Below are positions 5,401 through 32,991 of a stretch of 64,000 nucleotides of DNA, one piece after another. The translations under genes were made by a program, and so were the position numbers. Origin of the DNA: a virus (lineage: Duplodnaviria; Caudoviricetes); IMG/VR virus record IMGVR_UViG_3300025711_000239, positions 1-64,000 of that record; one strand, written 5' to 3'. Within the stretch, counting starts at the first letter, position 1, and each line of letters starts with the position of its first letter. The notes beneath the pieces were generated by a model. The model worked only from the letters and a program-made list of their open reading frames with translations. It was not told where the DNA came from and searched no databases.

Positions 5401-5585
5401 TTTTTTCATCATTTATTTTGAGCATCTTACGTGCTGAAAATTCAGAATGCGAATCTGACGTCTACTTAAACCCTAAATGCCTGAGCTTCAGAAAAACAAC
5501 AGAAAACTCGAAAAGAATTAAAATAAACAGCAACTACAGTTGGATACGGCAAAACTTAGAGGACCGATTAATTAAAGCTTCTTAG
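2496..5585 (+). CDS. NACHT/STAND NTPase with N- and C-terminal transmembrane segments, probable anti-phage protein
   Basis: Walker A GEPGSGKS, Walker B FLFDSFDE, TPLFL and FAFAHRRYQE motifs; hydrophobic stretches; AT-rich. Confidence 0.8.
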   Translation: MDLKGTVMAIEDESAEFPVKVLEAAERVFNILWNSDSNQDLWHWLILVVSAFIICSSVLILLIKSFGGLFENIASCIESYKSSGLPLWQNKSNKTSIKKRKQFCAVLEADLSYLAKAENWNDQYFTDLEAEVETEGGYYASALDKLRNKKSFGLRKESSLIRAITKSTERAMQLVGEPGSGKSVALRHLAKQFAERGRKSNDKNAVVPLYVNLREIELDNKEDVNADSIREFILDNIRRGDADTSAFVRDNWQDYCSRGIWLFLFDSFDEIPAVLHAETGSNVIKKYSQALRQFLEGMGECKGILASREFKGPEALPWKKLRILPLTGEKQDELILNSFLNEENMKMVRQHLASSHSSIGSTPLFLTLLCRYVRDEYKPPNNDHDILFQHIDRLSRREPEYLLRKYNLNPAELVIGAERLARLFAEDDDLSLAPSLDQIRSKLPVTEIPGDSLENLISALVDSKIGRADVPNASIGDRRFAFAHRRYQEALFVRYLTTHPEAISPSILLTENRWREYTVTLLQTREYEEFSHLLSHASFILSQCASQNKFKLCGQPPLPSNLGYYDWSDETAIQLLSLLQEGLAHRLQDIPYSLASAVLNFLKPRWEKGDSFDRNEVLRLGGLLPHDILVKYLVETFSDGTKSERLHAFKQTAFTQRLPEKEKAVVLRMLSNQIIMAKDRAELLSIEALAARLPSDMGANVVVNRSVRLRRNFGLLRKIVPNFLMVDHPSILISIFGSIFNTPSFGPKVLLRHIKDNYQNTKPKYDFSFFSFLVVFTWAVLAANLIKYQSNIILFTFVMQSILITFLIYLFLPFSFRHYGKKVKAVDVIIWLISFVKTKKIIKSFILLSTSMSLFFVFNYILGYSTMWLVHEYLPTYLDKFNVITSNSYILSGSIITISIMYIVLLAKISIYSKRKKHLNKTSLARLNHAKQQEGSDIAVIYCAENREELIYWLEYDSDLMSDVHSIRIFSSFILSILRAENSECESDVYLNPKCLSFRKTTENSKRIKINSNYSWIRQNLEDRLIKAS

Positions 5586-6915: not shown

Positions 6916-7182
6916 ATGCACACCGTATTATCCGCAAACTCCTCCGCTCCTGCGGCCCCGGCTTTACCCGTAAACCCGGCGCTGAATGACCGCTTCCTGC
7001 GGCTGCCGGAAGTCATGCACGTCTGCGGCCTGTCCCGCTCCACCATTTACGACCTTATCAGCCGCAACGCCTTCCCGGCGCAGGTGTCGCTTGGCGGCAA
7101 GAACGTGGCATGGCTCGCCAGTGAAATCAGCGTCTGGATGAGCGATCGCATTGCAGCACGCGGTCAGGAGCGTACCGCATGA
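6916..7182 (+). CDS. alpA: AlpA/Vis family regulator or excisionase
   Basis: RFLRLPEV...GLSRSTIY...FP...LGGKNVAW. Confidence 0.93.
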   Translation: MHTVLSANSSAPAAPALPVNPALNDRFLRLPEVMHVCGLSRSTIYDLISRNAFPAQVSLGGKNVAWLASEISVWMSDRIAARGQERTA

Positions 7183-8494: not shown

Positions 8495-10819
8495 ATGAAA
8501 ATGACCGTATCAGAAGCGGCCACCGCTGCGCGGGGCCACTGGCCCCGCATTCTGCCCGCGCTGGGCGTGAAGGTAATCAAAAACCGCCACATGCCGTGCC
8601 CGGTCTGTCAGGGAACGGACCGCTTTCGCTTCGACGATAAGGACGGGCGCGGCACGTGGATTTGTAATCAGTGCGGTGCCGGTGACGGCATGGACCTGGT
8701 GAAAAAGGCGCTCAGCATTACGTTCAGAGAGGCCGCCGTGCGCGTAAACGAACTGACCGGCAACCTGCCGCCGGTAGCGGCAGGCAACAGCACGGCAGCC
8801 GGTCCCGAAACGGACGAGGCATCCCGCGCCGCAGCGGCTGCACTGGCGCAGCAGCTGGTCAGCACGGCAAAGGAAGCGGCGGGCAACGCCTATCTGTCCC
8901 GGAAGGGGCTGCCAGAGCAGGCGTGCCTTACACTTTCAAAGGCGCATAAGGTGGCGTTAACGACCTACCGCACCGGCGATGTGGTTGTGCCCCTGCACGA
9001 CATGAGCGGCCAGCTGGTTAACGTGCAGCTCATCAATGCCAGCGGAGAGAAGCGCACGCTCAAGGGCGGCCAGGTGAAAGGCGCCTGCCACGTTCTCAGC
9101 AGCGCTAAGCCGGCAAAGCGCATCTGGCTCGCAGAGGGCTACGCGACCGGCCTGACGGTGCACAACCTGACCGGTGATGAGGTGTGGGTTGCGCTCTCAT
9201 CGGGCAACCTCCTTTCTCTGGCTGGCCTTGCCCGTGAAAACCACGCCACGCTGCAGCTGATGATTGCCGCCGACCGCGACCTTAACGGCAACGGTCAGGA
9301 TAAGGCGAAGAAGGCCGCTGATGTCAGTAAGGCCGTCGTCGCGCTGCCACCCGTGTTCGGCGACTGGAACGACGCCTTTGTGCAGCACGGCGACGTCCCG
9401 ACGAAGCAGGCGCTTGCTGAGGCCGCCGCGCCCGCCACCGCCAGCCCGTTTGACGTGATGAGCGAAGCGGAGTTTTCGGCCATGAGCGCCAGCGAAAAGG
9501 CGGAGCGCGTTGCTGAGCATTACCGCAATGCGCTGGCGGTGGATGCCAGCGGCGAAATCCTGTCACGCTACAGGGCGGGCGCGTGGAAGGTCATTTCGGG
9601 GAAGCAGTTTGAGCGCGACGTGGCGAAGCTGTTCCAGCGGCTGCGCGCGCCGTTCTCGGCGGGCAAAATTTCAGGCGTGGTGGATACGCTGAAGCTGATG
9701 CTGCCGCAGCAGTCCGACCCGGCGCGCCGCCTGATAGGCTTTCGCAACGGCGTACTGGACACCCGTACCGGCAGCTTCAGCCCGCACAGCAAACGCTTCT
9801 GGCTGCGCACGGTCAGCGAGGTGGACTTTACCCCGCCGGTTAAGGGCGAGACGCTGGCAACCCACGCGCCGCACTTCTGGCAGTGGCTGGACCGCGCCGC
9901 CGGACGAGACGCGGCAAAGCGCGATATTATTCTCGCCGCGCTGTTTATGGTGCTGGCGAATCGCTACGACTGGCAGCTGTTTCTGGAGGTCACGGGTCCC
10001 GGCGGCAGCGGCAAAAGCATCATGGCCGAAATCGCCACCATGCTGGCCGGAACGGACAACACCACCTCCGCGACCATCGAGACGCTGGAGTCATCGCGCG
10101 AGCGCGCGGCGGTGATTGGCTTCTCGCTGATAATTCTGCCCGACCAGGAGAAGTGGAGCGGCGACGGTGCGGGCATCAAGGCGATTACCGGCGGCGACGC
10201 GGTATCCGTGGACCCGAAGTACCGCGATGCCTACTCAACGCACATTCCGGCGGTGATTCTGGCGGTAAACAACAATCCGATGCGCTTCACCGACCGCAGC
10301 GGCGGCGTATCGCGCCGCCGGGTCATCCTGCACTTCCCGGAAATCATCCCGGCAAACGAGCGCGACCCGCAGCTGAAGGAAAAAATCAGCGGCGAGCTGG
10401 CCGTCATCGTGCGCCAGCTGATGCAGCAGTTCAGCCAGCCGCAGGACGCAAGGGCGTTGCTTCAGTCGCAGCAGAACTCCGATGAGGCGATGCGCATCAA
10501 GCGCGACGCGGATCCGATGGTGGACTTCTGCGGCTACCTGTTCACCACGCCGGAGCCTACTTCGCTTTACATGGGGAACGCCAGCATCAGGCCCTTACAG
10601 CCAAGACGCTATCTTTACCATGCCTATCTGGCTTATATGGAGGCGAACGGTTACAGGAATCCACTCAGCATGAAGATGTTCAGTCTGTCGCTGGAGAGCA
10701 TTATGCGTGAGTACGGGCGTCATTATCTGAAGCGGCGCACGAAGCTGGGGATGCAGACCAATCTCGATCTGACTGAGGAAAGCAGTTCTGACTGGCTGCC
10801 CAAGTGTGATGCCACCTGA
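8495..10819 (+). CDS. P4 alpha-type primase/helicase
   Basis: CPVC/CNQC zinc finger, Toprim EGYATG, SF3 helicase GPGGSGKS. Confidence 0.96.
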   Translation: MKMTVSEAATAARGHWPRILPALGVKVIKNRHMPCPVCQGTDRFRFDDKDGRGTWICNQCGAGDGMDLVKKALSITFREAAVRVNELTGNLPPVAAGNSTAAGPETDEASRAAAAALAQQLVSTAKEAAGNAYLSRKGLPEQACLTLSKAHKVALTTYRTGDVVVPLHDMSGQLVNVQLINASGEKRTLKGGQVKGACHVLSSAKPAKRIWLAEGYATGLTVHNLTGDEVWVALSSGNLLSLAGLARENHATLQLMIAADRDLNGNGQDKAKKAADVSKAVVALPPVFGDWNDAFVQHGDVPTKQALAEAAAPATASPFDVMSEAEFSAMSASEKAERVAEHYRNALAVDASGEILSRYRAGAWKVISGKQFERDVAKLFQRLRAPFSAGKISGVVDTLKLMLPQQSDPARRLIGFRNGVLDTRTGSFSPHSKRFWLRTVSEVDFTPPVKGETLATHAPHFWQWLDRAAGRDAAKRDIILAALFMVLANRYDWQLFLEVTGPGGSGKSIMAEIATMLAGTDNTTSATIETLESSRERAAVIGFSLIILPDQEKWSGDGAGIKAITGGDAVSVDPKYRDAYSTHIPAVILAVNNNPMRFTDRSGGVSRRRVILHFPEIIPANERDPQLKEKISGELAVIVRQLMQQFSQPQDARALLQSQQNSDEAMRIKRDADPMVDFCGYLFTTPEPTSLYMGNASIRPLQPRRYLYHAYLAYMEANGYRNPLSMKMFSLSLESIMREYGRHYLKRRTKLGMQTNLDLTEESSSDWLPKCDAT

Positions 10820-10836
10820 AATTCATAATATTTAGA

Positions 10837-10858
10837 ACCGGCGAAAGCCGGTTTTTTG
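10837..10858 (+). terminator. Terminator after primase
   Basis: AACCGGCGAAAGCCGGTTTTTT. Confidence 0.8.
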
Positions 10859-10968
10859 CGCTCGTTAAAGGCGCTAAATTCATCCAGCTCCATATAAAAA
10901 ATACATTCTCTGATATGTAAGAGAATTTCGCTTGCCACATTTGAAATGAGTCGAGTCCGCTATGAGCG

Positions 10969-11125
10969 CAGGCTGTGTAAAACTGTTTTGGTCGCTTAAT
11001 CTGCGTAAAACAGGGTTGAAAGCAGCGCTCATAAGTAAAATTTGGCTCAGCTAACCTGTCGATTAATTCCAGATTTTGCGTAGATGCACGCACTTCAGTA
11101 TGAGTCAGAGTTTTCACACAGCCTG
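10969..11125. mobile_element. 157-bp MITE inserted in a palindromic site
   Basis: Terminal inverted repeats CAGGCTGTGT(G)AAAACT; 4-bp duplication AGCG on both sides; too short for a transposase. Confidence 0.75.
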
Positions 11126-11223
11126 AGCGAGGAGCGGACGCTAAAATGATGGCGACCGGGAAGTTCTGCCACATTAGACATAACACCCCGGCCACGTACG
11201 GAACGCGCGCAGCCTTAGAGCGG

Positions 11224-11624
11224 CTAGGGCAGTGCGTTCTGGTAGAGGTCCCAGCGATTGCCGTAGATGTCCTCGAATACAACCACCATCCCATACTCCT
11301 CCTGCCGCGGCTCCTGGCAGAAGTGGACGCCCTTTTCCTTCATGGCGTTGTAGTCGCGCCAGAAGTCGTTGGTCTGCAGGAACAGGAATACCCGCCCGCC
11401 GCACTGGTTCCCGATAAAACTCTCCTGCCGCTCGTTTGAGGCGCGAGCCAGGAGGAGATTACAGTCGCTTTCCGGGTTCGGTGTCACCACAACCCAGCGT
11501 TTGCCAGGCTCGGCGTGTCCTCAACCAAGGTAAAGCCCAGCTTGTCGGTGTAGTACTCGATCGCGCGGTCGTAGTCGTCGACCACTATCGCCACGTATCC
11601 CATGCATCGCTTTTGCGTTCTCAT
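11224..11624 (-). pseudogene. VOC/glyoxalase family protein, frameshifted
   Basis: MRTQKR..VAIVVDDYDRAIEYYTDKLGF, a 1-bp shift near 11510, then ...VVVFEDIYGNRWDL. Confidence 0.85.
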
Positions 11625-11854
11625 TTCTGCTCCGTCAGGTTTCAGGCACAACAGCCCGGACACCCTCTTTTAACATATAAGTGCCTGACCGCCCCCCCCC
11701 TGAGAGGCCCTCAGCGCGATTCTGGCGCTAACGAAGCGTTTCCGTCACTTTTTTCCGGCCAGAATCCTGAAAAACGGCCATGAAGATTACGGTGCATCTG
11801 AATTATTGTGCGGTAAGATTTACTCTCCACCGATTAGTGCTCGCAGATGCTGGA

Positions 11855-11921
11855 AACGTCCGCTTCAAATGGCACGAAGCGGACGCTAGCAAAAGGTTTG
11901 CTATGAGCGAAAACCGGAAGC
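11855..11921. repeat. Two adjacent palindromic sites
   Basis: CGTCCGCTTC-aaatggcac-GAAGCGGACG, then degenerate GTTTGCTATGAGCGAAAACCGGAAG. Confidence 0.75.
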
Positions 11922-12082
11922 AACAAAAAATGCATTTGCCGTTTCCGGTAGTTTATTGTATTTTTTAGTCGGCTTTATTCGTATGCCCGCGAAAGCAAGT
12001 TACGGATTCACTATCTCACTTTAATTTGTGAGAGGGGAATCTGCACTTGCGCAATTCTGCCTCTCACCCCACGGAGGCAAGC

Positions 12083-12301
12083 ATGTCTAATAATAATCTC
12101 TCAGTTCCAGCTACCCGTAAAATCAAAGGAAAAGCGCTTACACGTATCGATCAAGAACAAAAAACGATCAATTCAGGCCCATTAGGCCCAGAACGCCTTA
12201 TCATCAATATCGCACTTGATTTCATGGAAAAATATCCTGGTATGTCTTGGGAGCAGGCTTTAGTTGCCGCCATGGGCTACTGTGATCGCACTCATAGCTA
12301 A
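12083..12301 (+). CDS. Small hypothetical protein (72 aa)
   Basis: GGAGG SD before ATG; 14 nt upstream of next gene. Confidence 0.65.
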   Translation: MSNNNLSVPATRKIKGKALTRIDQEQKTINSGPLGPERLIINIALDFMEKYPGMSWEQALVAAMGYCDRTHS

Positions 12302-12315
12302 TAGTGAGGCAGATA

Positions 12316-13356
12316 ATGGCGAAACCAAACATTACGAAGATCTTTCATAATGGGCATGCATATGAGCTTGAGTATGGTGGATGGTTAAATCATAGATATG
12401 GCGAGGCTAGCAAAGCTTTAACTGAAGTATATTCAAACGATATTCATCTCAACAATACTACTATTGGTGAATATAAAGCCGCGAAAAGTGATGAATATGA
12501 GGGAGTTAAAGATAAACGTGATATGACGTTTATGAAATACCTTAGGCAATCCTTTAAGACTGAATTTGATATGGAGTGGGATGAGACAATCAAGGGAATA
12601 AAAAAAGCTATTAACGATAGCTGCATCCCTTATCTAATTCGTCAAAAAGCAGATGCATCAGTTGAAGAAAAATCTACAGCTATTTACCTAGCTGCTGCAA
12701 ACGGTCATGTTGCTTCAACCTATTTCATTGCCACGGCTATGAGTGATGGGGATGATGAGAATTGCTTATATTGGTTAACTTTAGCTCATAAGCGGGGTCA
12801 CATTGGTGCTGCATATGATATGGCAGCTTATTTCTATCGAATAGGAAACACCTTAGATGCCCTAAGGTGTTTAATCGTCTCAGCTGATGGTGGCTGCGAT
12901 TTTGCGTATTTAACTCTATTTAACATCGAATTGTTGAAAAGCATGCTGACTATTCAAGATAGCTCAAAGTTAGATGCTATGTTGAATGAGCTGGTTGATG
13001 GATCGCACAGTTCGAGTGCTCGATACTTCAAAGCTGTACGGCTTTTGGCGGGAGATACACCAACAGAGGGTGTGGCTCTTATGAAAACTTTTCGTCAAAC
13101 GCCAAAGAAAAAGCCTGCTGATAAAGACATTGATGATGTATATCGGAACCAAATGGCTTTTACTGAAGAGTTCTTGCATACGGTGCTTAGTGATATTAGT
13201 TCTCGAAAGCCCCCTTTAGTATCACTAATGGAATGTTCGCTTAAGTTTTCAGACCCTCGCCGAGCAGAAGAGGGGAAGTCATTTGCGTTAAGTTTTGAGG
13301 ATTATAGAGAGTCATTAGAAATGTTCAAAAAATATAAAACAAATGAAAGTGCATGA
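12316..13356 (+). CDS. SEL1-like repeat protein
   Basis: LAAANGHVAS, WLTLAHKRGHIGAAY and SADGG repeats. Confidence 0.7.
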   Translation: MAKPNITKIFHNGHAYELEYGGWLNHRYGEASKALTEVYSNDIHLNNTTIGEYKAAKSDEYEGVKDKRDMTFMKYLRQSFKTEFDMEWDETIKGIKKAINDSCIPYLIRQKADASVEEKSTAIYLAAANGHVASTYFIATAMSDGDDENCLYWLTLAHKRGHIGAAYDMAAYFYRIGNTLDALRCLIVSADGGCDFAYLTLFNIELLKSMLTIQDSSKLDAMLNELVDGSHSSSARYFKAVRLLAGDTPTEGVALMKTFRQTPKKKPADKDIDDVYRNQMAFTEEFLHTVLSDISSRKPPLVSLMECSLKFSDPRRAEEGKSFALSFEDYRESLEMFKKYKTNESA

Positions 13357-13439
13357 AAATAGGTAAGCAATCGATTCTTTTACGATTAGTACGGAGATCC
13401 AAACGGTTCACTCTGGTGCAAGCCGCTTTATGACGCTCT

Positions 13440-13521
13440 CTGTAGTAAATCCGAGTTCTTCGTTTCATGGCAACGTCCCCCTTGATTAAGGATAGCGTTG
13501 CATCGACCCATTGAACTCACA
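13440..13521 (-). mobile_element. IS30-family left-end stub
   Basis: Near-identical to 19073-19153, including the transposase start ATGAAACGAAGAACTCGG. Confidence 0.7.
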
Positions 13522-13703
13522 CCGAGGAGCGGACGTTCGCAACTTGAATAATCGTATGGCTAACTTTGAGGTGTCTTAATCAACGGGGAACTGGTCAAGT
13601 GAGGAGGGAAAGGAACATTTTCGCGAAGTGAATTCTGCCTGCGGTTTGTTAGGCGCAGGCGGAATCTTATGTAATATTTTAACTTTTTGCAGTTGTTAAT
13701 CAC

Positions 13704-15239
13704 TCAGCTATATATGAATTTTAATGTTCTTTTTACATAGCTTTTAGCTTGTTCTATATCGTTGGAAACCTCCCCCCCATGATGTTGAGCATTTCCAAAA
13801 TCTTTGAGGTTGTATAATTCTTCAATATGCTTTTTCATTGAAAAATAATTTTTATTTTCGTCGCTTTCATTAATTATATCGAGCATTGCACCAAGCATAA
13901 TTTCATTATTAAAGTCAGTGGGGAAGCGGGTTTTCAAATAATCTTCCAATACTATGCGCATAGCCGGTAAAACCTCATGCAATTTATCATTGCATTCTCC
14001 TGATACAAAGGAATGTAATAATTTAATTCTTGCAACATAACTACTTTCAACAACCTTTTCATTCCATAATGAAATGCTACTAGTGTTATTATCGAAATTT
14101 TTACTTATGCTGTATTGCTGTGCAGAAGATAGCGATTTATCAGTCTTCATGAGATGTAAGAATTTTGCATCATGAGATAATATAAAAATCTGGCGTGTTT
14201 TTTTCTTTAATTCTTTTATTATTTCTTTTGTTGCATGTCTTCTGGATTCATCAAAGCTTGACATGGGGTCATCGAATACAACTATTGTTTTTTTAATGTT
14301 TTTAGAAGCGTCAAGTTTTGATAGGAAGAAAGCTAAAGAAATTGCTCTCTTATCTGCATCGCTCAGCAACGTATCAAAGTACGGCAGCCCATGTTGAATT
14401 GTATTGGATGCAAAAATGTCCACTTCAAAGTCATTCATGCCTATTGAATATTTTAATCTTTTGGAAAGATCACTTGAGAAATTTGATGATCCTAACTTCA
14501 TAACTTTGAAGTTAGTACCGAATTTACTGAGGTAGTAATTTATGCTGGCTTGATGTAATGTCAATTCATCATCGATAATGCTAATTAACTTTTCTTTTTT
14601 AATTCTTATGGATTCAATTAATGATTTTTTCTTGTTAAGAAGTTTTTTTGATTCTTCAAGAATTTCATTCTGATCCTTATTTTTCACGATAGAAGCTAAA
14701 TCATCTGGGTCTGATAATAGAAACATACTCTTAGTTTTTCCTGGGGACAAAGATAAATGAGAAATACATTCCGATAGTTTTTTATTTACTCCGCTTAGTG
14801 AGAGGTCGATTACTTCCAGTTCTTTAAAGACTTCTTTTCCTTCTTCATTTGCAAAAAGAAGTGAGAATAAACGCTCTCTTTGCTCTTTAAATATAGCATT
14901 ACCTGAGTAAACATTGTCATTGATAAAGGATGAGTCATAAACGGCCAGGCTCAGATCATTTAAATCCCAGCCTTTCTTATGATTAAATTTGAGAGTTTTT
15001 CCATTTTCTAACTCCAAGATGACTTGTGGCTCGGATTTTGATGATGGCAATCTTGCGTGTTTCATTATGAACCGAGGGCTGTTTCCTTCTAAAGATTTAA
15101 AAATAGATGCTAAGGTTGATTTTCCACCTCCATTATCACTATAAATCAAGTTGATGTCAGAAAATATTGGGAACTTAGAAGGTGTAGAGAAGTTAGCAAA
15201 CCTTCCAATATCTTTTATATATTTTATACTCTTTATCAT
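13704..15239 (-). CDS. ABC-type ATPase (AAA_13/RloC-like) with possible C-terminal HEPN-like domain
   Basis: Walker A NGGGKST, signature LSDADK, Walker B VVFDDPMSSFD, H-loop LSHD; C-terminal MRIVLE...NAQHH. Confidence 0.8.
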   Translation of the reverse strand: MIKSIKYIKDIGRFANFSTPSKFPIFSDINLIYSDNGGGKSTLASIFKSLEGNSPRFIMKHARLPSSKSEPQVILELENGKTLKFNHKKGWDLNDLSLAVYDSSFINDNVYSGNAIFKEQRERLFSLLFANEEGKEVFKELEVIDLSLSGVNKKLSECISHLSLSPGKTKSMFLLSDPDDLASIVKNKDQNEILEESKKLLNKKKSLIESIRIKKEKLISIIDDELTLHQASINYYLSKFGTNFKVMKLGSSNFSSDLSKRLKYSIGMNDFEVDIFASNTIQHGLPYFDTLLSDADKRAISLAFFLSKLDASKNIKKTIVVFDDPMSSFDESRRHATKEIIKELKKKTRQIFILSHDAKFLHLMKTDKSLSSAQQYSISKNFDNNTSSISLWNEKVVESSYVARIKLLHSFVSGECNDKLHEVLPAMRIVLEDYLKTRFPTDFNNEIMLGAMLDIINESDENKNYFSMKKHIEELYNLKDFGNAQHHGGEVSNDIEQAKSYVKRTLKFIYS

Positions 15240-15640
15240 ACTTCCTCCGTAGGAACTCAATGTAGAAAAATAAAGTTTAATTAAGTGACATCATATAGAA
15301 ACACTAATCATATATCTATTTGACGCATATATAATTCACTAAAAAAATGTCGTAGATATTAATATAACACTTTAAGGCAACTTTACAGCACATGTAAAGT
15401 TGAAACTTCCGGAAAAATAGATGAATTGAGCAGAAATTAAAACAGTATATGTTGAGTTTTGGTTTTATATGAAAAATTTTATAGTAATTAAGAAGACAAC
15501 CTCCTGATTGCTAAAAGCGCCGGTTCGACCGGAGAACTGCTGACAGCTCTTACCCAGTTACGCAAGTCCCTTAGATATTAAGCTTATTTTATCCATCAGG
15601 GATGAAACTGTCACCAATCATGCTGAATGCAAAATATTTG

Positions 15641-15670
15641 AACGGCAGTTACTGACACAGAGCTGCTGTT
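15641..15670. repeat. Palindromic site downstream of small recombinase
   Basis: AACGGCAGT-tactgacacaga-GCTGCTGTT, geometry like the 11855 site. Confidence 0.55.
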
Positions 15671-15684
15671 ACAGCCCTCACAAA

Positions 15685-16284
15685 TTAAACTTCAATAGAT
15701 CCAGATATCTCCATGGCATCATCCACTTCAATACCGAGATAACGGACTGTACTTTCGAGTTTTTTGTGACCTAACAATAGCTGGATCACTCGAAGATTCT
15801 TCGTTTTTTTATAGATCAGATATGGCTTGGTTTTCGCGTAGAATACGTACTTTACAGGGTCTCGTCGAGACCCTGCTCATCAATCCATCCATGAAAATTA
15901 CGGTTATATTGCCTAGTTGAGATATGCCGTGAAGAACCGACGCGGGACTGGAACAGATAGTCGCTACTACGTAGATGAGCCATTTTTATCCACGCTGCTA
16001 CAGCCTCTCTGGTTCCCTTAGTCAGTTCAAACTGAACGGGCTTCCCGTTTTTTGCAGCAGCACTGTCGCTCTGCCCTAAACAGAGTGCCCATAGGCCACA
16101 TCAGAAACTTTTAACTTAACCAGATCACAGGCCCGAAGTTAACTGTCCAGAGCCATGTTAAACAGAGCTAAATCGCGCACTTTTCCTTCCAGCTTAAGTC
16201 TGATACGGAATCCCCAGATATGAGAGATTTGAAGAGGCCGTTTCTGGCCTAAGATACGGCACTTGTTCCAAGGGATGTTGTCAT
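15685..16284 (-). pseudogene. Small (~200 aa) tyrosine recombinase, decayed
   Basis: Manual translation: PWNK..GQKRPL...RDLALFNMALDS*LRACDL...NLRVIQLLLGHKKLESTVRYLGIEVDDA; several stops and frameshifts; absent from the ORF track. Confidence 0.88.
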
Positions 16285-16322
16285 GCTCTATTTCCTTTGG
16301 GTTAGGAGATGTGATTATGGTT

Positions 16323-16349
16323 GTCCCATATGAGCGAGAAGCAGATAAT
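16323..16349. repeat. Palindromic site upstream of small recombinase
   Basis: GTCCCATATGAGCGAGAAGCAGATA versus consensus GTCCGCTATGAGCGAGGAGCGGACG. Confidence 0.65.
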
Positions 16350-16409
16350 GGAGTGCTTATAAAAGTTTAATACTTGTCTCAGTCCGAGATTTTGGTAAGT
16401 ATTGATTCA

Positions 16410-17087
16410 CTATAGTTTTCCGCCAGCATAAAGGGAGGCCCATATAGCAGCACCAGCAAAGATAAGAACTAAAAATCTCTCAACCGTTTTGATAACTTTA
16501 TGTCTATATGTTGACTTGAATCTAAAGTCATTAAAAATAAGGTATTGCCTATAAATATAATTACTCATGTTGGAAGCAGAATGCTGTGAAGTGGATGTAC
16601 AATACCTAAAATATACAGAAAAATGTTTTTTTATGTGTTTGGGTGTTATTTGCGATGGGTTTTGATACTTGCCTATTATTATTTCAGTTTCATTGATTTT
16701 CCCAGCATTAGATTGATATGGCGCAACAAACACAAGAACATCACCGGATGGTCCCTGCGAATACCATAATTGAGCATTCCTTTCGAACGCAACTTCTAAG
16801 CTTTCGTTGTCTGGGGATGTTATGTTAAACCCCAAGAATCTGAGCCCAGTAAAAACATGAGTCGAATTAATATGTTGTGAACTAATAAGATTAGATGATT
16901 TGATTGGTTCATCATCTTTTGATCTGCTAATGTAAAGGCTCCCAAAGATATCGGTACTATGAGAGTCAGCATTTAAAATTTCAAACTCCCTTTGAATTCT
17001 ATCGTCCATAAACCTCCAATTTATGCGTTTAAAATATGCATTTAAACTATCTCTTCTTATTCTCTCTGCAGCGGACTTTAATTTCAA
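16410..17087 (-). CDS. Hypothetical protein with C-terminal TM helix
   Basis: 225 aa AT-rich ORF ending FLVLIFAGAAIWASLYAGG. Confidence 0.7.
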   Translation of the reverse strand: MKLKSAAERIRRDSLNAYFKRINWRFMDDRIQREFEILNADSHSTDIFGSLYISRSKDDEPIKSSNLISSQHINSTHVFTGLRFLGFNITSPDNESLEVAFERNAQLWYSQGPSGDVLVFVAPYQSNAGKINETEIIIGKYQNPSQITPKHIKKHFSVYFRYCTSTSQHSASNMSNYIYRQYLIFNDFRFKSTYRHKVIKTVERFLVLIFAGAAIWASLYAGGKL

Positions 17088-17306
17088 TGTAAATCCTTAA
17101 ATATAAAAATAGTTCATCATATATTCATGGGTAAACTAGGAAGTTGTTATGCTGATGAGCATAACTGGCAATAAAATCAAAAAAGTTCCAAGCATACTAC
17201 ATCAACAAACATCGATGCGCTCACATTCAGTATGAGAAACTTAGTTACGTCTGCTAACCTGCTCCCCCTTAAACTAATGCAGCATGATGTTAGGAACTTC
17301 CGCTTT

Positions 17307-18543
17307 TGACCCTGACCCCGAATATGATCCAGACATAATCAGGAATAACCGGCTTCAGGTTGGTTGCTTATTCTGGCAACCGGCAGATTTTTCGGCAAAT
17401 TCGGATGGGGTCATCCAGCCCAGCGCAGAATGGGGACGACTCTGGTTATAGTGTATTCGCCAGGCTTCGATTTTGCACCGGGCATCCTCCATCAACATAA
17501 ACCAGTTCTCGTTCAGGCATTCCTGCCGCAGCCTGCCGTTGAATGATTCCACCGTGGCGTTATCCGTGGGCGTACCCGGTCGCGAAAAGTCAATCCGGAT
17601 ATCATGTTCGTATAACCATTTATCCAGCATTTTTCCCGCAAATTCAGAACCATTATCAGTTTTCAGTAGCTGTGGCAGCGGTCGCCTCAGCGCTATGTTA
17701 TTCAGCATCTCAGCCACTTCTGAGGACCGCAGGTTCTGGCCCATGCAGATCCCCAGACATTCGCGCGTGTAGAGATCGATTACCGTCAGCAGGCGAAGCC
17801 GGCGACCGTCAAACAACGCATCGGAGACAAAATCCATCCCCCATACATGATTGGGATACAACCCCTGCGGCTGGGGCTGCCGTTTCAGCGCAGATTTAAT
17901 ACGGCGGGGGCGCTTTAGCCGCAGCGATAATCCCTGCTCGCGGTAAAGCCGGTAAATGCGCTTGTGATTATCGCGCCAGCCTTCCCGTTTCAGCATGACG
18001 TGGACCCTGCGGTAGCAGTAGTGGACGCGGGTTTCGGTTATCTCCCTGATGCGCAGCCGCAGCGCGCTGTCGTCTGCCGCAACGGAGCGGTAGCGGAACG
18101 AACTGCGGCTGACCTGCAGCGCAAAGCAGACCTGTCTCTCACTGGCACCGTAGCGGGTCTGTTAGTCCCTGACCCACTCGCGCAGGCGTGCCAGCGTCAG
18201 CTCTTTTTTGCCAGCACGTCCTGCAGCGTGGCCTTGTCGAGGCTCAGATCGGCAACCAGCCTCTTCAGGCGAAGGTTTTCCTCCTCGAGCTGCCGCATAT
18301 GTTTCAGTTCTGAAGGCGAAATCCCACTGTACTTTTTGCGCCAAGTGTAGAACGTGGCGTCGGAGATGCTCAGCTTGCGGCAGACTTCCGGTACGGGCGT
18401 ACCCAGCTCAGCCTGCTTCAGGGCAAAGACAATCTGCTCTTCGTTAAATCGTGACTTTTTCATCGGCACAACCTCCGCTCAGGGGAGTGAATATCATGCC
18501 GGAATTCTGTTTCTGAATGGAGCAGGATTTCGTGTCAGGGTCA
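17307..18543 (-). mobile_element. IS3-family insertion sequence, probably inactive
   Basis: Inverted repeats TGACCCTGAC; orfA 18197-18463, A6G shift site, DDE orfB (WGMDF, DNGSEF, VESFNGRLR) with premature stop at 18162. Confidence 0.92.
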
Positions 18544-19153
18544 TTTTTTTAATGCACCCCGGGTTTGTATAAAAAGCGTTTTATATATCGTTTCGTGTGG
18601 CACATGCATTTCCTGATTATCCGGATAACAGCGTTTCAGCCAACCGGCGATTTGTTCCGGCGACCAGTCCTGATGCATCTTCTCTGCGATGATTCTACAC
18701 TTTGGGTCTTTCAATTAGCTTGCAAGGTTTTAGTCTCAGAGCATTTTCCCACGCAGCAGTATCCGCTTTTGATGCACGGTATTGATTTGCACCAGCGTGC
18801 CTCTTTATTTCCCGGCTAATCGTTGAGGGGGCTCTCGATAGTTTGTTTGCGATCGCCCTGATGCTGATTTTGCTACCAGCGCTCTGGATATTTCCTCTCT
18901 TTCATCAAGTGAAAGCGCTAACGGATGCCGCTTTCGGACAGGGGGCGGTATCCACCAGTCTGGTGGATAGTGGGCATAATAGAAGAATGATATCTGTCGA
19001 ACATTCTGGCGATATCATGCAGGGAATCACCTTGCTTATATCTGTCCCAGATAATCGCCTTCTGCTCTGGCGTGTAGTTAATCCGAGTTCTTCGTTTCAT
19101 GGCAACGCCCCCCTTGATTAAGGATAGCGTTGCATCGACCCGTTGAACTCACA
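18544..19153 (-). pseudogene. Truncated IS30-family element
   Basis: MKRRTRINYT...IARMF N-terminus and HETIYKTLFIQTRGALK fragment cut at the IS3 end; terminus TGTGAGTTCAA. Confidence 0.8.
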
Positions 19154-19398
19154 ACGAAAAGCAGACATTCTTTTCAGGATAACTCTCACTCCTCTTTTGA
19201 CTTATAGGATGTCAGTTATTTCGGCTATTTGTAGTTCAATGCAGTTGATTGAGTAAGGAATAGATCTGACTCGTTATGCAGGCCCTAGTACCAAAGCTTA
19301 AACCTGTAGACAAATTGCACAACCAGAATGTATAACGAATTGGGATTATTCTTATTTGCTGGCTGGTATCTGGCACCCTACCCACGGCTCTCACCTGG

Positions 19399-20349
19399 AT
19401 GACAAATATGGAAATTGAGAAAAACACGATTGATGATGTTATGCGTGCTGTGTTTGAAAATATCCTGTCAGATGGTGTTCCTGTTGAAACAACGCGGGGT
19501 CCGACAAAAGAGATTCTGGGTACACACATCATTTTGAGCAATCCGATTTGCCGGATTAGCAGAACAGAATCCAGAGGTAAAATATTCACCTGTCTGGGTG
19601 AGTTGATGTGGTACCTATCAGGCAGTGACGAGGTTGAATCTATTCGCTATTACATCTCAAAATACCAGGATTCTGCAGAAAGTGATGGCACAATTAATGG
19701 CGCTTACGGACCTCGTCTCTTTGGTACCAAGAATGAAATTAACCAGATTGAGAATGTCATCCGGCTTTTAAAAAAACGCAACACATCTAGGCGAGCAGCC
19801 ATACAGCTTTTTGACGCAAACGATATAGCCCATCCCTTCGTTGAAGTCCCCTGTACTGTCGGGCTCCAGTTTGCGATTAGGAATGATTCCCTCGATATGT
19901 TCACATTCATGCGCTCTAACGATGCGCGAGCAGGACTGGTTCACGACATATTTGCATTCACGATGCTTCAGGAAATGATTGCAAAAACCCTCGGTTTAAA
20001 TTTGGGCGTTTATCGCCATTATGCGGCAAGTCTGCACATCTATACCGAGGATATTCCCCTCATCGAAGCTGCGCTTAAAGAGGGTTATGCGCCATCTGCA
20101 CCAGTTATGGTGGCAATGCCCACAGAGGATATAAATCACTACTTATGCATCATTGTTGATGCAGAGAAACGCATCCGAGAGGGCGACATTCCAGACATTG
20201 ATACGCTAAGCCTGAGTGAATACTGGAAAGATGTCCTTCGTATGCTGGCGATATTCAGATGCAAAAAAGACAAGGACTTGCCAGCTGCTCGGTCCATTGC
20301 CGGGAAATTGCAAAATCAGTCATACAAAATTTATCTTGAGTGGTTGTGA
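19399..20349 (+). CDS. Thymidylate-synthase-fold nucleotide-modifying enzyme
   Basis: GELMWYLSG, GAYGPR, VPCT catalytic Cys, MRSND, SLHIY. Confidence 0.88.
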   Translation: MTNMEIEKNTIDDVMRAVFENILSDGVPVETTRGPTKEILGTHIILSNPICRISRTESRGKIFTCLGELMWYLSGSDEVESIRYYISKYQDSAESDGTINGAYGPRLFGTKNEINQIENVIRLLKKRNTSRRAAIQLFDANDIAHPFVEVPCTVGLQFAIRNDSLDMFTFMRSNDARAGLVHDIFAFTMLQEMIAKTLGLNLGVYRHYAASLHIYTEDIPLIEAALKEGYAPSAPVMVAMPTEDINHYLCIIVDAEKRIREGDIPDIDTLSLSEYWKDVLRMLAIFRCKKDKDLPAARSIAGKLQNQSYKIYLEWL

Positions 20350-20357
20350 GGGAGAAA

Positions 20358-21296
20358 ATGAAACGACAGGATCTAATTGATGAAATTTCAGAGCAGCTCG
20401 AATCGTTCAGTACACACGAAATCCCGCTCAGGGGATTAGATACCCCCGACAAAATCACAACGCTCGCCGCACAGATACTCGACAGCAAGCGTCGTATTGA
20501 GTACGTCGGAGCCATTGGTAGAAATAAGATATCCCCGCTTCGGGGAAATCCCCACAGCGATATTTTTGATCCGCTACGAGCTGCATGGTTGCATGTTTAT
20601 GAAGGGAATGTAGATGAGGCGTGCTGGCTTATTTTCCTGTCCACCCACTTTGGCAAACATCTCAAATATGGTTGGCAATTGTGCGCCGACATTTATGGTG
20701 GACTCGGTGGCGATGTATGGACTTGGGAGAAAGTGGTTGCGGAAGTGGACACCTTTCACGCCTGGTATGAGGGCTGCTATCGCCAGATGCTGGCAGACGG
20801 TCAGAAAAGAAGGTTTGGGAACCATAGAAAGTACGAATCCCTCAAACCGGACAGCAAGCGCCCCCTTCCACGCGTTATCAGCTCATACGTAGCGTGGGTA
20901 GGAAACGTAGGTAGTCACGAAGCGCGATTTGCTGAAGCCAAAGCCGCATCTAGTAGTCAGGAAGAGTACTTTGATATTCTTTACCGAAGCATGAGGGCTG
21001 TTTTGTCATTTGGGCGGGCTGGAAGGTTCGACTTTCTGACAATGCTCATCAAGTTCTGCATTATTGATGCCAAGCCGGGAACGCTGTATCTGAACGGGGC
21101 AACAGGACCTCTGGATGGCGCAAACCTTCTATTTTACGGTGAAGCGAGAAATGCGGCCAATTATAAGGTATTAGACGATCTTCTGGCGAGGCTCAGCGCC
21201 TTCATGGACATGGGACTGCTTGAAATGCAAATTCTTGAGGATGCTCTTTGCAACTGGCAGAAATCACCCTCTCGCCACGTTTACTTTGGCGGATGA
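20358..21296 (+). CDS. aGPT-Pplase clade 3 (HhH glycosylase-fold) protein
   Basis: WLIFLSTHFG, FGNHRKYES, FGRAGRFDFL, GATGP, EDALCNWQK motifs recalled for this family; next to TS-like gene. Confidence 0.72.
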   Translation: MKRQDLIDEISEQLESFSTHEIPLRGLDTPDKITTLAAQILDSKRRIEYVGAIGRNKISPLRGNPHSDIFDPLRAAWLHVYEGNVDEACWLIFLSTHFGKHLKYGWQLCADIYGGLGGDVWTWEKVVAEVDTFHAWYEGCYRQMLADGQKRRFGNHRKYESLKPDSKRPLPRVISSYVAWVGNVGSHEARFAEAKAASSSQEEYFDILYRSMRAVLSFGRAGRFDFLTMLIKFCIIDAKPGTLYLNGATGPLDGANLLFYGEARNAANYKVLDDLLARLSAFMDMGLLEMQILEDALCNWQKSPSRHVYFGG

Positions 21297-21298
21297 TT

Positions 21299-22381
21299 TC
21301 AGGACAGATCTTCACGGTTATATTTGACTTTGAATTTGGCAAAATGATCAAAGGGAATTTTTTGGGCGTGCTGTAACTGCCCCAGCACTATCCCTTTTGA
21401 TACACCAATTTTCCGAGCAAATTTAATAATATTTTTCCAATTTCGCCCACTCAGCTTGTCAAACTCTGCACGGTATGCTGGGGGAATCAGGACGTTGCTG
21501 GAAAACTCGTTTGCTTCCTGTTCTTCTTTTTCAGAAAGGCCACTCATTCCTTCTATGCGGTGCTGTTCACAGTTGTGCAGAACCAGATGGCCAATCTCAT
21601 GGAACAACGTAAACCAAAAATGATCGTCTCTGAGATACCGAAAACTCATTATTAGTGTCGCTTTGCCAGACTCAAAAAAACAGGTAGCGCCGCTTGCTGG
21701 ACAACCTGTTGGCGTTGGCAGGATCACAAGCGCTACACCAGCGTCAGCGAGTATGCTGCGTATCGCAGGAAGAAATACTTTGGGATCAGCTTCAAGAGAA
21801 TGTTTTCTTAAAGCTTCTAGGCTGCCTTTAAGTATTTCCTTATCCCATGCATAAGTTCTCTGTTTTCGCGAAATATATTCAGCTTTCTTGAGCCAAGTTA
21901 TTACGGCCATTTCTTCCGTTCTGAAAGCTTCAGATTTTCTGAAAGCTATAGCAGTCTGTTTACTTTTATAATAATCAAACCATTCAGGTACAGATGAAAC
22001 GCCGAAAAAACTCAGGCAATACTCTACTTTTTTATTACCACTCAGGCCCTTCGGGATCCAACCCAGTTTACTCATATCTGACGTAGGCAGAGACTGAACC
22101 CATTCATTATTTTGGCGAATGATGGCATCTTTATGTTGGCGATATTTATTTTCACGACTGAGCCAGAAAGTCGTGCTGACATTGAAGAGAGATTCAAGTT
22201 TGTTGGCAATCTTCTCAGTGAGAATAAGCTCACCAGAAATCAACTCACGACTTTTAATCATGGAAAGGCCAACTCTTTTACTGAGCTCTTCTTCGTTGAA
22301 ACCAAGTTCATCCATGAGGTCTATTATGGTATCTCCGGGGGCTGACACCCAATCCGTGTTAAATCCGTTATCAGAAACCAT
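21299..22381 (-). CDS. HigA-like HTH fused to ImmA/IrrE metallopeptidase
   Basis: PGDTI HTH N-terminus; FWFTLFHEIGH zinc motif; EQEAN. Confidence 0.9.
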   Translation of the reverse strand: MVSDNGFNTDWVSAPGDTIIDLMDELGFNEEELSKRVGLSMIKSRELISGELILTEKIANKLESLFNVSTTFWLSRENKYRQHKDAIIRQNNEWVQSLPTSDMSKLGWIPKGLSGNKKVEYCLSFFGVSSVPEWFDYYKSKQTAIAFRKSEAFRTEEMAVITWLKKAEYISRKQRTYAWDKEILKGSLEALRKHSLEADPKVFLPAIRSILADAGVALVILPTPTGCPASGATCFFESGKATLIMSFRYLRDDHFWFTLFHEIGHLVLHNCEQHRIEGMSGLSEKEEQEANEFSSNVLIPPAYRAEFDKLSGRNWKNIIKFARKIGVSKGIVLGQLQHAQKIPFDHFAKFKVKYNREDLS

Positions 22382-22706
22382 AATCTTCGCCTATATGAAC
22401 CAATTTCAACCGAGTTACCCGACCCCAATCAAGTGAATTGTCTGCCTGACGGGGTGGTTTGAGATGACCATTTACAAAGTACATCTTAACGCCTTCGCTA
22501 AGGTTAATTGTAACGTAATCGCATCCATTTTCGCATAAAAACTCTGTTTTAAGAAAACTTGGAAGCTCAGCTATCGATGCTGAAGACCAGATATCAGCAC
22601 ACCGCACGCGCAGTTTTGCAGCTACGGCATCACCGAACAAATTTATCCCTGCTTCTTTAAACTCAACTGAATCTCTGAGTTCGGAACTGTCACAAAAAAT
22701 CTGCAA
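22371..22706 (-). CDS. HigB/RelE-like partner protein
   Basis: Overlaps the antitoxin start; probable TTG start at 22706; DWGRVTRLKL C-terminus. Confidence 0.6.
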   Translation of the reverse strand: MQIFCDSSELRDSVEFKEAGINLFGDAVAAKLRVRCADIWSSASIAELPSFLKTEFLCENGCDYVTINLSEGVKMYFVNGHLKPPRQADNSLDWGRVTRLKLVHIGEDYGF

Positions 22707-23071
22707 TGGGTTACCAACGCTGAGCGATTTATCAGAGAATATTATATTGTAATGTATAAAAAATCCACGGTTTAACGGGCAGGTACATGAGGATGTCAAT
22801 GAAATTTCAATAATTACGCTCACCGCTTAATTGAAACTGTCATCTAGGAACAGTGAACAAAGCTTATAACTAAAATCTCCACATTTTTCCGCTGTAGCTC
22901 TCTGGTCCTACCCACGAAATGCGAACTCACTTTGTTGCGGCCAATATTGATCTTCATTCGGCATTCTATTCTTTATCATCCATTTGGAACGCACCATGAC
23001 TAGTAAGCAGCGCATAAAGTACTAAGGGTACCTGACCAACTCTCCGTTGATTCACTCATAACGCTGTTAGC

Positions 23072-23100
23072 AATGTCCGCTTTTCGCTCAAAGCAGACTG
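23072..23100 (-). repeat. Palindromic site, inverted orientation
   Basis: Reverse complement CAGTCTGCTTTGAGCGAAAAGCGGACATT. Confidence 0.75.
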
Positions 23101-23175
23101 TCAGATTTAATGATGTGCAGCCAGTGAAAACCGTCAGCTCAAGTCTGAGCTGACGCATATTATGAACCAGTAAAA

Positions 23176-32200: not shown

Positions 32201-32991
32201 GCAGTACCGAGGCCGAGGTGGTCACGGGCCTCCGCCACATCCGGCACATCCGCCAGATTTTTACTGGCTACCAGCTGCTTCTCATTGACCAGCTGATCCA
32301 GCTCGATGTTTTTACGGAACATCGCTTTGTCGTGAATATCCGAGCCGTTGTTAGCGATAACCATGTTGTTATCGATCAGCTCTTTAAGGATTTTTAGCCC
32401 CTTCAGGTTGGCCGCAATCAGCTCGTCGTCACTGGTGTAGATGGAATCCAGCGTGATCCCTACCTGCCGGTTAATACGGTAGTTGGTGACGATCATCGCC
32501 TGCGTAACCTGCGTGGTGCCGGTTGGCACAAGCACGCGGCAGAGCTCCAGCTGGTTCGGTTCCAGCGCTACAGAGATATCCTGCGCAAAGACGCGTGCGG
32601 CCTCAACTATGGAGGTGATATCTACCTGGTCAGTCTTAACACCCAGCTTGTAGTTTGCTTCCAGCACAATACGGGTAGTTTTGCCCGCCACGACCGGCAG
32701 TGTCAGATCGGCCAGGTGCTGCACGGTAATCTGGTGTGCGTTCACGTCGATTGAGGCCGCGCCCTGCCAACCTTCCGCCCCTTTTGAGGTAACAACAATA
32801 TTCAGCCCGGAACCAGCGACCGGCGAGAAGCCCAGGTAGAAGCCCGATCGCACAATGCCTTTCAGCTTTCGGTTTAATGCGGAACTGGTGTAAGTCTCCA
32901 GGTACTGCATATCCGCCGACAGCGGCGCGGTGCCATACGCCTTACCCGCCATAACGCCAATATCGGTAATTTCATTACTGCTCATGTGCAT
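29254..32991 (-). CDS. Tail fibre protein (P1 S-like N-terminus)
   Basis: ADMQYLETYTSSALNRKL N-terminus; LGLGTAA and IGDSDTG fibre motifs. Confidence 0.9.
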   Translation of the reverse strand: MHMSSNEITDIGVMAGKAYGTAPLSADMQYLETYTSSALNRKLKGIVRSGFYLGFSPVAGSGLNIVVTSKGAEGWQGAASIDVNAHQITVQHLADLTLPVVAGKTTRIVLEANYKLGVKTDQVDITSIVEAARVFAQDISVALEPNQLELCRVLVPTGTTQVTQAMIVTNYRINRQVGITLDSIYTSDDELIAANLKGLKILKELIDNNMVIANNGSDIHDKAMFRKNIELDQLVNEKQLVASKNLADVPDVAEARDHLGLGTAATADQQTNPMDMTPGALMAVGAFGVGAPSLVLDSKITSLADVSVTEQNAFWTLSGTFNDGPIDLGKTTQTLRGQLFNMRRKYDADAALLQLLVAQGGVMYLRLAGKVSGDWAWSGLSDGADKNGWRKVMDSASMTLADLIKLGAAKAGDNDDITSTSKLTNINTPKLTVSKNLDVGSQISAGYRIGVIRSEPSVPSMTFLRTDQLDDKPPAYETDIMQIVGRVAAVSGDAWSGRILGGITTTNMTHGGGKITIDARTSTGVIAARLALNSGDGLATLQGAGGLAITGGGGLTSDGAGLFTADSVALQLKAKTKDKAYYLRGRKADNSLHWYMGQSTDNTDTITWGNSIPNTWFTLSGDGTGETNVSTMKLRNNAIVGGNLAVSGGADVTGPLNVLAKGATAVGDLTAAALVVTGSSNDGTQGITVNSFAPTVTFIDRDADSTGFRWRGNGSSLRLDVDGRDNGVTWKQDVAQFSDKGLLSLGNGNNNPARMLTLGNNSPGKGNLSGASQIAAMAYANIGADATTRGVGFGVEMSVGDGITVQTTPDWVEFWGNSSVVNANASVTLMTSFRSYDKASTSIATAYAFEGRQSARDGVSRWNLFMQGTAPNYLRGQTLIGGMDTNIPASSVALSVNGGADVKGPLTVYGDAYLKSSLSIMASRPYIDFNSSTTATNDYDARIIVDATTAKTNGQAALNIDAANINLLGVANLKSSLYVDKDAHFSDGAYVTGPFYASTHISIGSFGTSSFAGSAASINIGDSDTGLICPSDGVLDFYSNNGRYLSLDGPGLRVYFDKPIASGTPDTYRIISGGFGVFQRFDGTNFYFMATNQNDPMGTWNNLRPLYFNARTGRVDMGHDVAIGGNCYFNQQLNVGGNIVSGDRVYTGNGSSFVQGDGNVYGACWGGYLSNWVSGNFVQRGSGDAVQDIRLAGEGGGILNGTFKAPGGCVFTGWYTEGSSPGGDTIFYRAIQKAVAGNWFTIGQL

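Follow-up and report, generated by a model that had tools for sequence, protein, structure and literature searches.

The region described here lies at 10955–23098 of the IMG/VR virus record IMGVR_UViG_3300025711_000239, a record of 118,644 bp classed as a provirus, of which the first 64 kb (64,000 nucleotides, the window) were analysed. It contains a series of accessory genes separated by copies of a short palindromic site, together with the remnant of a gene for a 200-residue tyrosine recombinase. The site is 24 bp long, with the arms GTCCGCT and AGCGGAC placed 10 bases apart, and the 10 inner bases fall into two classes with a 6-base core, GAGCGA in class A and TGGCAC in class B. The arms comprise GTCCGCT plus one or two further bases (7–9 bp) and enclose an asymmetric centre of 6 bp. 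Inverted arms around a short asymmetric spacer are the geometry of a simple tyrosine-recombinase core site of the lox, FRT or dif type, in which strand cleavage is predicted. The features of the region are as follows, where pPAG02 is a Pantoea megaplasmid of 582,658 bp and ORF is open reading frame.

10955–10968, plus strand: left part (arm and spacer) of an A site, cut by a miniature inverted-repeat transposable element (MITE)
10969–11125: MITE of 157 bp in the site centre, with terminal inverted repeats of about 13 bp; the 4-bp AGCG is duplicated
11126–11139, plus strand: duplicated AGCG and right part of the same A site
11224–11620, minus strand: VOC/glyoxalase cassette gene (Pfam Glyoxalase, E 7.9e-7, on an 88-aa ORF)
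11858–11884, plus strand: B site of 27 nt (three extra bases), first half of a B-A doublet
11896–11919, plus strand: degenerate A site with four arm mismatches, second half of the doublet
12047–13356, plus strand: two-gene cassette (84 aa and 350 aa), no family match
13441–13521, minus strand: remnant of an IS30-family element (left end), with 95% identity to the intact pPAG02 element at its end
13522–13534, plus strand: right half of an A site, adjoining the IS30 end
13704–15260, minus strand: AAA_13 ATPase cassette gene (Pfam AAA_13, 3e-27; PADLOC PDC-S06, a candidate defence family, 4.4e-47)
15644–15658, plus strand: remnant of a B site (left arm, degenerate, and spacer) that forms the constant left border of the recombinase module
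15685–16284, minus strand: recombinase pseudogene, 93.5% DNA identity to the pPAG02 gene
16323–16346, plus strand: A site with four arm mismatches, lying about 40 bp upstream of the start codon and forming the right border of the recombinase module
16410–17087, minus strand: 225-aa cassette gene, no family match
17298–17306, plus strand: left half of a site, adjoining the IS3-family element
17307–18543, minus strand: IS3-family insertion sequence (IS), 93% identical to annotated IS3-family transposase genes, which replaced part of the IS30-family element
18544–19154, minus strand: part of an IS30-family element with the transposase start, a pseudogene, 90.6% identical to the pPAG02 element
19155–19166, plus strand: right half of an A site, adjoining the IS30 end
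19399–22823: four-gene module (thymidylate-synthase-like, aGPT-Pplase3, ImmA/IrrE-like and a 150-aa ORF; Pfam)
23075–23098, minus strand: A site, inverted, one mismatch, border of the four-gene module

Within 10953–23100 only one full palindrome is intact, that at 11858, and it carries three extra bases; the others are degenerate or halves, or have a single mismatch (23075). The halves arose because a MITE, an IS30-family element and an IS3 element inserted at or in the sites. When 10955–10968 is joined to 11130–11139 across the MITE, a perfect A site is obtained that is identical to one in G022:C3, a contig of a genome with 17 exact sites. The half site at 15644–15658 is recognisable only through alignment to intact recombinase modules from six contexts. 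The region was further compared with assembled contigs from four sequencing runs of other samples (among them X15, X2 and X3), a comparison that, resting on assemblies, is uninformative on rare excision products and from which only the covered parts served as evidence. The three extra bases at 11858 were absent from one contig of run X15 (depth 46 of 86.9). All ten places at which the initial annotation had put copies of the site or parts of it were found to hold such elements, once their coordinates and lengths had been corrected, and the placement of the sites between genes was borne out, as none lies within a long ORF of the region. The length of 28–30 bp given there had to be replaced by 24 bp. 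A literal pattern with an 8-base core finds none of the noted sites, whose arms are 10 bases apart, and matches the window only twice at two mismatches, at 23133 and 45003, both unrelated.

The half sites at 13522 and 19155 both adjoin the transposase-proximal end of the IS30-family element, and the fragment at 13441–13521 forms a direct repeat with 19073–19170. On pPAG02 the element is intact (locus L003, 9641–10882) and occupies the exact centre of a B site, with GTCCGCTTATGG on one side and CACAAACCGGAC on the other. Its transposase scored 277.6 bits with the NCBIfam model transpos_IS30 (NF033563, cut-off 80), which places it in the IS30 family. A full copy at 116432–117688 of the record interrupts a second copy of the 23075 site. 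The element was thus found precisely in the middle of A and B sites, in at least four contexts (pPAG02; 13441–13534 and 18544–19166 of the window; 116419–117700 of the record). Contigs from other samples have the half site 19155–19166 in common and then diverge at 19166/19167. The insertions at site centres, together with these diverging contigs, indicate that the element targets the centre of the site; IS30 is known for its preference for palindromic hot spots. Its presence exactly in the site centre on pPAG02, at 13522, at 19155 and at 116431 of the record, with further contexts in other samples, could also be taken to mean that the IS30-family element makes or moves the sites, or that the sites are the ends of a hairpin-ended transposon. 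The ends of the IS (TGTGAGTTCAA...) are unrelated to the site arms and most arrays are without an IS30 copy. As the IS splits the sites, they are its targets and not its products, and this explanation is most improbable.

The abundance of the motif was examined in the window and in related genomes. GTCCGCT occurs 19 times in the window, compared to 7.7 expected, a count reached in 0 of 100 shuffles, and GTCCGCT-N5-14-AGCGGAC occurs once against an expectation of 0.01. The main evidence that the motif is commoner than chance comes from other genomes: the exact pattern was found in 38 of 151 Erwiniaceae genomes (a set with many tiny symbiont genomes), with 1–17 clustered sites in each, while the reversed control pattern gave 0–2 per genome. 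When the spacer classes were also required, 5 of 251 genomes of the order matched and the control gave none in any genome. Ten exact sites lie in clusters on pPAG02, two on the P1-like plasmid NZ_CP134741 (94,249 bp), and three to five in each of three genomes that were reached through individual loci. A reading of the sites as repetitive extragenic palindromes (REP) or bacterial interspersed mosaic elements, which have hundreds of copies genome-wide, was rejected, with 0–17 exact copies per genome in clusters; the REP-like scatter that the initial annotation had named as contrary evidence was likewise not seen (1–17 per genome, clustered). The same annotation had noticed no sites in the P4-like and P1-like parts of the sequence. 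None in the P4-like part is convincing, and in this the statement holds; the P1-like part of the record carries sites beyond the window, a degenerate one at 78301 and an exact one at 111036.

The geometry of the arrays was determined by a relaxed scan of 21 fetched loci, in which up to three arm mismatches were allowed and a spacer more than one base away from its class was accepted only with near-perfect arms. In each locus the predicted sites, 151 in all, have a single orientation. Adjacent sites follow the order B then A in 38 of 38 pairs, spaced 36–42 bp from start to start, and the doublet at 11858/11896 (38 bp) has the same geometry. Cassettes read A, gene or genes, B, and neighbours therefore meet at a doublet of B, 12 to 18 bp, and A. 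The median cassette length is 1,223 bp (75 intervals of 250–3000 bp). These loci are not independent samples, as they were selected for the presence of sites and four show homology to pPAG02. Two intervals of exactly 751 bp, 3.6 kb apart, were observed at 420295–424654 of pPAG02 (locus L144, 6296–7070 and 9881–10655), one bounded by A and B and the other by B and B, with the second recombinase copy of the plasmid between them.

The initial annotation had suggested that the breakpoints of gene gain and loss might map to the sites, and comparison of related arrays bears this out. The pPAG02 array lies between conserved backbone genes, its content varies among P. agglomerans megaplasmids, and the listed alignments end at sites. 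When five such megaplasmid arrays were compared all against all, 39 of 76 merged megablast ends fell within 12 bp of a predicted site, an area that covers 3.0% of positions. A difference of a single cassette was found between NZ_CP134741, in which a 1,499-bp alpha/beta-hydrolase cassette lies between two direct B sites, and the record, which has one B site at 111036. This site is a hybrid, with the left dinucleotide of the left copy and the right dinucleotide of the right copy. Loose contig ends from other samples also fall at sites of the window: at 11870, where run X2 has a different left neighbour, at 16341, inside the site 16323–16346, where a contig of X3 diverges, and at 23094 and 23097, where contigs of X15 and X2 diverge.

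The arms of the sites move together with the adjoining flank. In the VOC cassette GTCCGCTGC-TGGCAC is constant and is followed by any of three right arms, each with its own right neighbour, and another cassette keeps its B site, the linker and the left arm of the A site, with the right arm of the A site varying with the neighbour. Among 174 sites, 17 pairs have only the left flank in common, and 37 of their 42 within-site differences are at positions 16–24; 20 pairs have only the right flank in common, with 44 of 54 differences at positions 1–10 and none at positions 11–15. This segregation was seen in both classes, and it locates the exchange to the 6-bp centre of the site (between positions 10 and 16).

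The location of the exchange bears on whether the substrate could be folded single-stranded DNA, as in integrons. The cassettes would be the same, but each B-A doublet would form one long hairpin in which the left arm of B pairs with the right arm of A and the right arm of B with the left arm of A, the unlike spacers forming a bubble that sets strand and polarity. The order and spacing of the doublet are fixed in 38 of 38 cases, as such a fold would have it, and the perfect doublet of G022:C3 (locus L133, 8925–9007) forms a single long hairpin of attC-like shape, its spacers lying in an internal bubble (-23.7 kcal/mol, z = -6.6, a value equalled in none of 200 shuffles). In two other doublets, however, the hairpins are separate, and a lone A or a lone B site may also lie at a border. 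The exchange points are central in one 24-mer, B or A, and not at the outer end of the doublet, which the single-stranded fold fits less well, and this substrate is considered unlikely.

The recombinase gene of the window differs from that of pPAG02 by three one-base deletions and three in-frame stops. The intact homologue has 200 residues and Phage_integrase (PF00589, E 9.7e-18) as its sole domain. Alignment to XerD, its best solved relative (E 9e-4 only), revealed the catalytic R, HxxR, H and Y in the motifs LRG, HSMRR, LLGH and RYLG. The predicted structure is poor (mean predicted local distance difference test score 50.9, from 22 close sequences). Six of six contexts with unrelated flanks agree in the limits of the recombinase module, with a half B site at its beginning and an A site directly before its end; the left border is the left arm and spacer of the B site fused to a terminator-like hairpin. 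The same module is present on an Escherichia coli IncFIB plasmid together with three more co-oriented sites. In another gammaproteobacterium (G435) a homologue of 63% identity is accompanied by half sites of the GTCCGCT type at both corresponding positions, upstream and downstream, which became apparent on inspection only, and five further Erwiniaceae contexts (G086, G097, G105, G137, G152) contain near-consensus sites within about 3 kb of the gene. A link between the sites and the recombinase family, which had been put forward earlier as a check, was found in the fetched contexts of the pPAG02-type gene, where gene and sites are physically tied. Among the loci of distant homologues (L145–L152), one unrelated pair was the only perfect palindrome with 7-base arms, and inspection of four of them (L146, L149, L150, L151) revealed no convincing site.

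Matches of 76–100% identity were found in many gammaproteobacterial genera (at least 120, among the matches listed). The family is thus widespread and strongly conserved. At E ≤ 1e-30 it was detected in 14 of the 400 Gammaproteobacteria sampled, a tally that includes two unpublished genomes (G294 and G461), which were used for this count only. Among 72,556 plasmid records 372 carry a member, in genera that range from Pantoea and Escherichia to Sinorhizobium and Vibrio. In the pPAG02 gene the Shine-Dalgarno sequence is paired in a hairpin with an upstream complement (-12.7 kcal/mol, z = -3.15; L003 6622–6680, minus strand), and the same hairpin occurs in L166 near 6960–7000, which suggests translational control of the recombinase. 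Separately, three sets of adjacent integrase-family genes resembling recombinase-in-trio arrangements were observed in G022:C3, near 30059–32399, 58002–60345 and 70187–72525, one of them beside a cassette array.

The constant borders of the recombinase module are difficult to account for if the palindromes are structural or regulatory hairpins of a terminator-like or REP-like kind, shuffled by short-homology or illegitimate recombination, with the recombinase as a passenger. The sites do lie between genes and form hairpins, arrays without a recombinase exist, and homology ends would collect at any common repeat. The hairpins are, however, without a following T run, and the sites number 1–17 per genome in clusters rather than hundreds. 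Two conserved asymmetric spacers and the strict co-orientation also speak against this explanation, as do the arms retained beside a recombinase homologue of only 63% identity and the coincidence of module borders with sites in six of six contexts, and we regard it as improbable.

The sites could also be used by another enzyme, of the host or of a helper, for example a different tyrosine recombinase, the 200-residue protein being a regulator or accessory factor. The protein has no separate N-terminal DNA-binding domain, and perfect sites persist in a genome without its gene. Against this, no other recombinase gene recurs beside the fetched arrays, the 200-residue protein falls far short of the cut-offs of the XerC and XerD models, and the sites do not seem to resemble dif. 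The involvement of another enzyme appears quite improbable.

The region 10955–23098 is therefore read, with good though incomplete confidence, as a decayed array of mobile gene cassettes bounded by core sites of the tyrosine-recombinase type, with the 200-residue recombinase as the putative exchange enzyme. The site-specific gene capture system proposed in the initial annotation is supported by the comparative evidence, in that the sites are clustered, breakpoints fall at sites and the recombinase is linked to them. The comparisons show the sites and their geometry, the location of sites at the borders of cassettes, the segregation of arms with flanks and the recombinase-site linkage. Catalysis of the exchange by the 200-residue protein, acting on double-stranded sites, is what we infer from these. 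The recombinase, consisting of a catalytic domain only, would exchange strands in the 6-bp centre, A with A or B with B; like spacers would recombine and the two classes should not recombine with each other. Co-oriented sites would allow cassettes to be excised and inserted, and flanking A and B sites would allow them to be swapped by two crossovers. Cassettes would in this way be excised, inserted or swapped among chromosomes, megaplasmids and phage-plasmids, and the comparisons suggest that such swaps at the sites have taken place between these replicons in Pantoea. At this locus the system is frozen: the recombinase is a pseudogene, a MITE splits one site, the IS30-family element cuts at least two sites and IS3 has removed more.

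Several observations weigh against this reading. All of the evidence is comparative. The longest ORF lies on the strand opposite to the sites in 49 of 76 cassettes and on the same strand in 26, with one cassette having no ORF, so the cassette genes are not co-oriented with the sites. Of the 76 homology ends, 37 lie away from the sites; many of these coincide with IS3 edges, one with the half B site that borders the recombinase module, and the others are in the backbone. Because the sites are the sole sequence that unrelated cassettes have in common, alignment ends and short-homology recombination would also gather there. The hybrid site at 111036 resolves the crossover only to positions 8–16, and the pairs used for the segregation of arms have common ancestry and are not independent events; short-homology recombination would look similar. 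The recombinase module is without the right arm of the B site, and the local gene is dead, with its three frameshifts and three stops. Homologues occur in 3 of 50,697 phage records, none of them close. Among the 151 Erwiniaceae genomes the gene is present in 13 and exact sites in 38, and 5 of the 13 genomes with the gene have no exact site. In G022, with its 17 exact sites, no homologue was found at E ≤ 1e-20 and no small Phage_integrase match. Arrays without the enzyme may be relics, or the recombinase may reach them in trans; among integrons, too, there are integrase-less attC clusters.

The two site classes may further constitute a natural cassette-exchange device, in which a swap proceeds by one A-with-A and one B-with-B crossover, the recombinase acts in trans, and the content of hotspots is turned over across Proteobacteria. 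As A and B lie on either side of every cassette, replicons bearing such a slot could exchange cargo without staying fused. These would include a P2-like phage, the P1-like phage-plasmid, the megaplasmid and the chromosomal island. This extension is put forward tentatively and, on balance, is possible rather than probable.

The cargo of the window was described initially as defence-like, which is correct for part of it. Two of nine window proteins match anti-phage models strongly, the ATPase and the ImmA/IrrE-like protein (PADLOC PD-Lambda-2_B, 1.3e-29), and the rest do not; the nine include one protein from the P4-like part with a marginal match only (E 7.7e-4). In the Pantoea megaplasmid arrays the cargo consists mostly of GNAT, VOC and DUF genes. 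The VOC gene of the window is probably frameshifted, as contigs of three of the four runs carry an extra G behind 11510. At 21299–22823 the ImmA/IrrE-like gene and the overlapping upstream 150-aa ORF, which has no match, may form a partial PD-Lambda-2-like defence unit. The four-gene module is 98.6% identical to NZ_CP134741, common to the P1-like plasmid and duplicated in the record.

The surroundings of the array contain further mobile elements:

528–890: transfer-messenger RNA (tmRNA), at the start of the window
7463: isrK of the P4-like satellite
7603: C4 RNA of the P4-like satellite
8495–10819: primase of the P4-like satellite

The closest DNA matches of the window are Pantoea agglomerans plasmids. 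The P4-like satellite probably ends at 10857, since contigs of two runs diverge after this position; a repeat of the tmRNA end was looked for as its attR and none was found. Between its integrase and core genes the satellite carries a gene for a protein of 1029 aa at 2496–5585 with a marginal PADLOC match (E 7.7e-4). From 19293 onward the record is 98–99% identical to the 94-kb plasmid NZ_CP134741. The module at 19293–23086 is present again at 112634–116430 with 99% identity, and the two copies flank the whole P1-like plasmid. The second copy ends inside its copy of the 23075 site, at the IS30 insertion. Inverted copies of the IS30-family element (18544–19154 and 116432–117688) sit outside both module copies, and contigs of other samples also show the module bounded by IS30, with joints of 19154/19162 to 23078/23086. 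It looks as if the P1-like plasmid integrated by a homologous crossover in a module that it had in common with the chromosome; an assembly path through a repeat is the alternative.

The same sites were found in phage P2 (AF063097), with a B site (one mismatch) at 15335 after gene G and a degenerate A site (four mismatches) at 17432 before FI, followed by the same CTGTCAGATTT flank as at 23099 of the window. As these lie around fun(Z), they are the same sites as the repeats of the P2 hotspot, a known defence hotspot. Inverted repeats bounding the fun(Z) slot were reportedly described by Nilsson, Karlsson and Haggard-Ljungquist in Mol Biol Evol in 2004. The present sites differ in that they occur in long arrays, carried by megaplasmids and a P1-like plasmid, and are linked to one particular family of recombinases. 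A text search of the hotspot paper (Rousset et al., 2022; PMC9122126) found neither of the terms recombinase and inverted repeat, and the paper names no enzyme or site. The titles and abstracts searched, which concerned integrons, other known elements or unrelated subjects, yielded no description of the enzyme or the arrays, a negative that is not proof of absence. For the movement of accessory and anti-phage genes at the fixed slots of phages, satellites and plasmids, the present comparison defines the borders of the cargo to within a few bases and names a candidate enzyme.

Among known tyrosine recombinases, Cre/lox and FLP/FRT have similar inverted arms around an asymmetric spacer, and their heterospecific spacer variants are used for engineered cassette exchange. 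As in those designs, two classes flank the cassette and would allow a swap by two crossovers; here the arrangement is natural, the arms are 7–9 bp instead of 13 and the enzyme lacks an N-terminal domain. A compact recombinase with two orthogonal sites might be useful as a tool. The invertases of the FimB/FimE type are also of about 200 aa with only a catalytic domain, but with their models the protein reached 28.6 and 21 bits (cut-offs 222 and 221), and the sites here are direct and not inverted around a promoter. The Xer/dif and pdif systems resemble the arrays in that small gene modules of plasmids are delimited by short sites with two arms and a 6-bp centre. The present enzyme is, however, encoded by the element, and it scored 47.7 bits with the XerC model (TIGR02224, cut-off 335.15) and 31.7 with the XerD model (TIGR02225, cut-off 329.6). 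The pdif sites of Acinetobacter plasmids alternate in orientation, whereas all 151 sites are co-oriented within their locus.

The closest parallel is with integrons, whose arrays also consist of mostly single-gene cassettes of about 1 kb with GNAT, VOC, DUF and defence genes as cargo, with a tyrosine recombinase gene beside a special weaker site, with arrays that lack the enzyme and with IS elements that target the sites. The initial annotation had noted that the sites match neither attC nor dif and that the enzyme is much shorter than IntI; by the defining features of both, the system is neither an integron nor a pdif array. No dedicated IntI model was among the matches, and the sole NCBIfam match with integron integrase in its name, NF040815 (XerA_Arch), gave 57.7 bits against a cut-off of 220. 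Integron attC sites are imperfect palindromes of about 55–140 bp with R and L boxes, while the sites here have 24 bp, arms of 7–9 bp, a 6-bp centre and two spacer classes. In integrons the cassette genes all read in one direction from a common promoter; here the longest ORF shares the strand of the sites in 26 of 76 cassettes. The enzyme differs in having 200 aa with the catalytic domain only, its gene is itself inside a site-bounded module, and the exchange maps to the site centre. If the reading given here is true, these arrays would represent a second, mechanistically simpler route of gene-cassette capture besides integrons.

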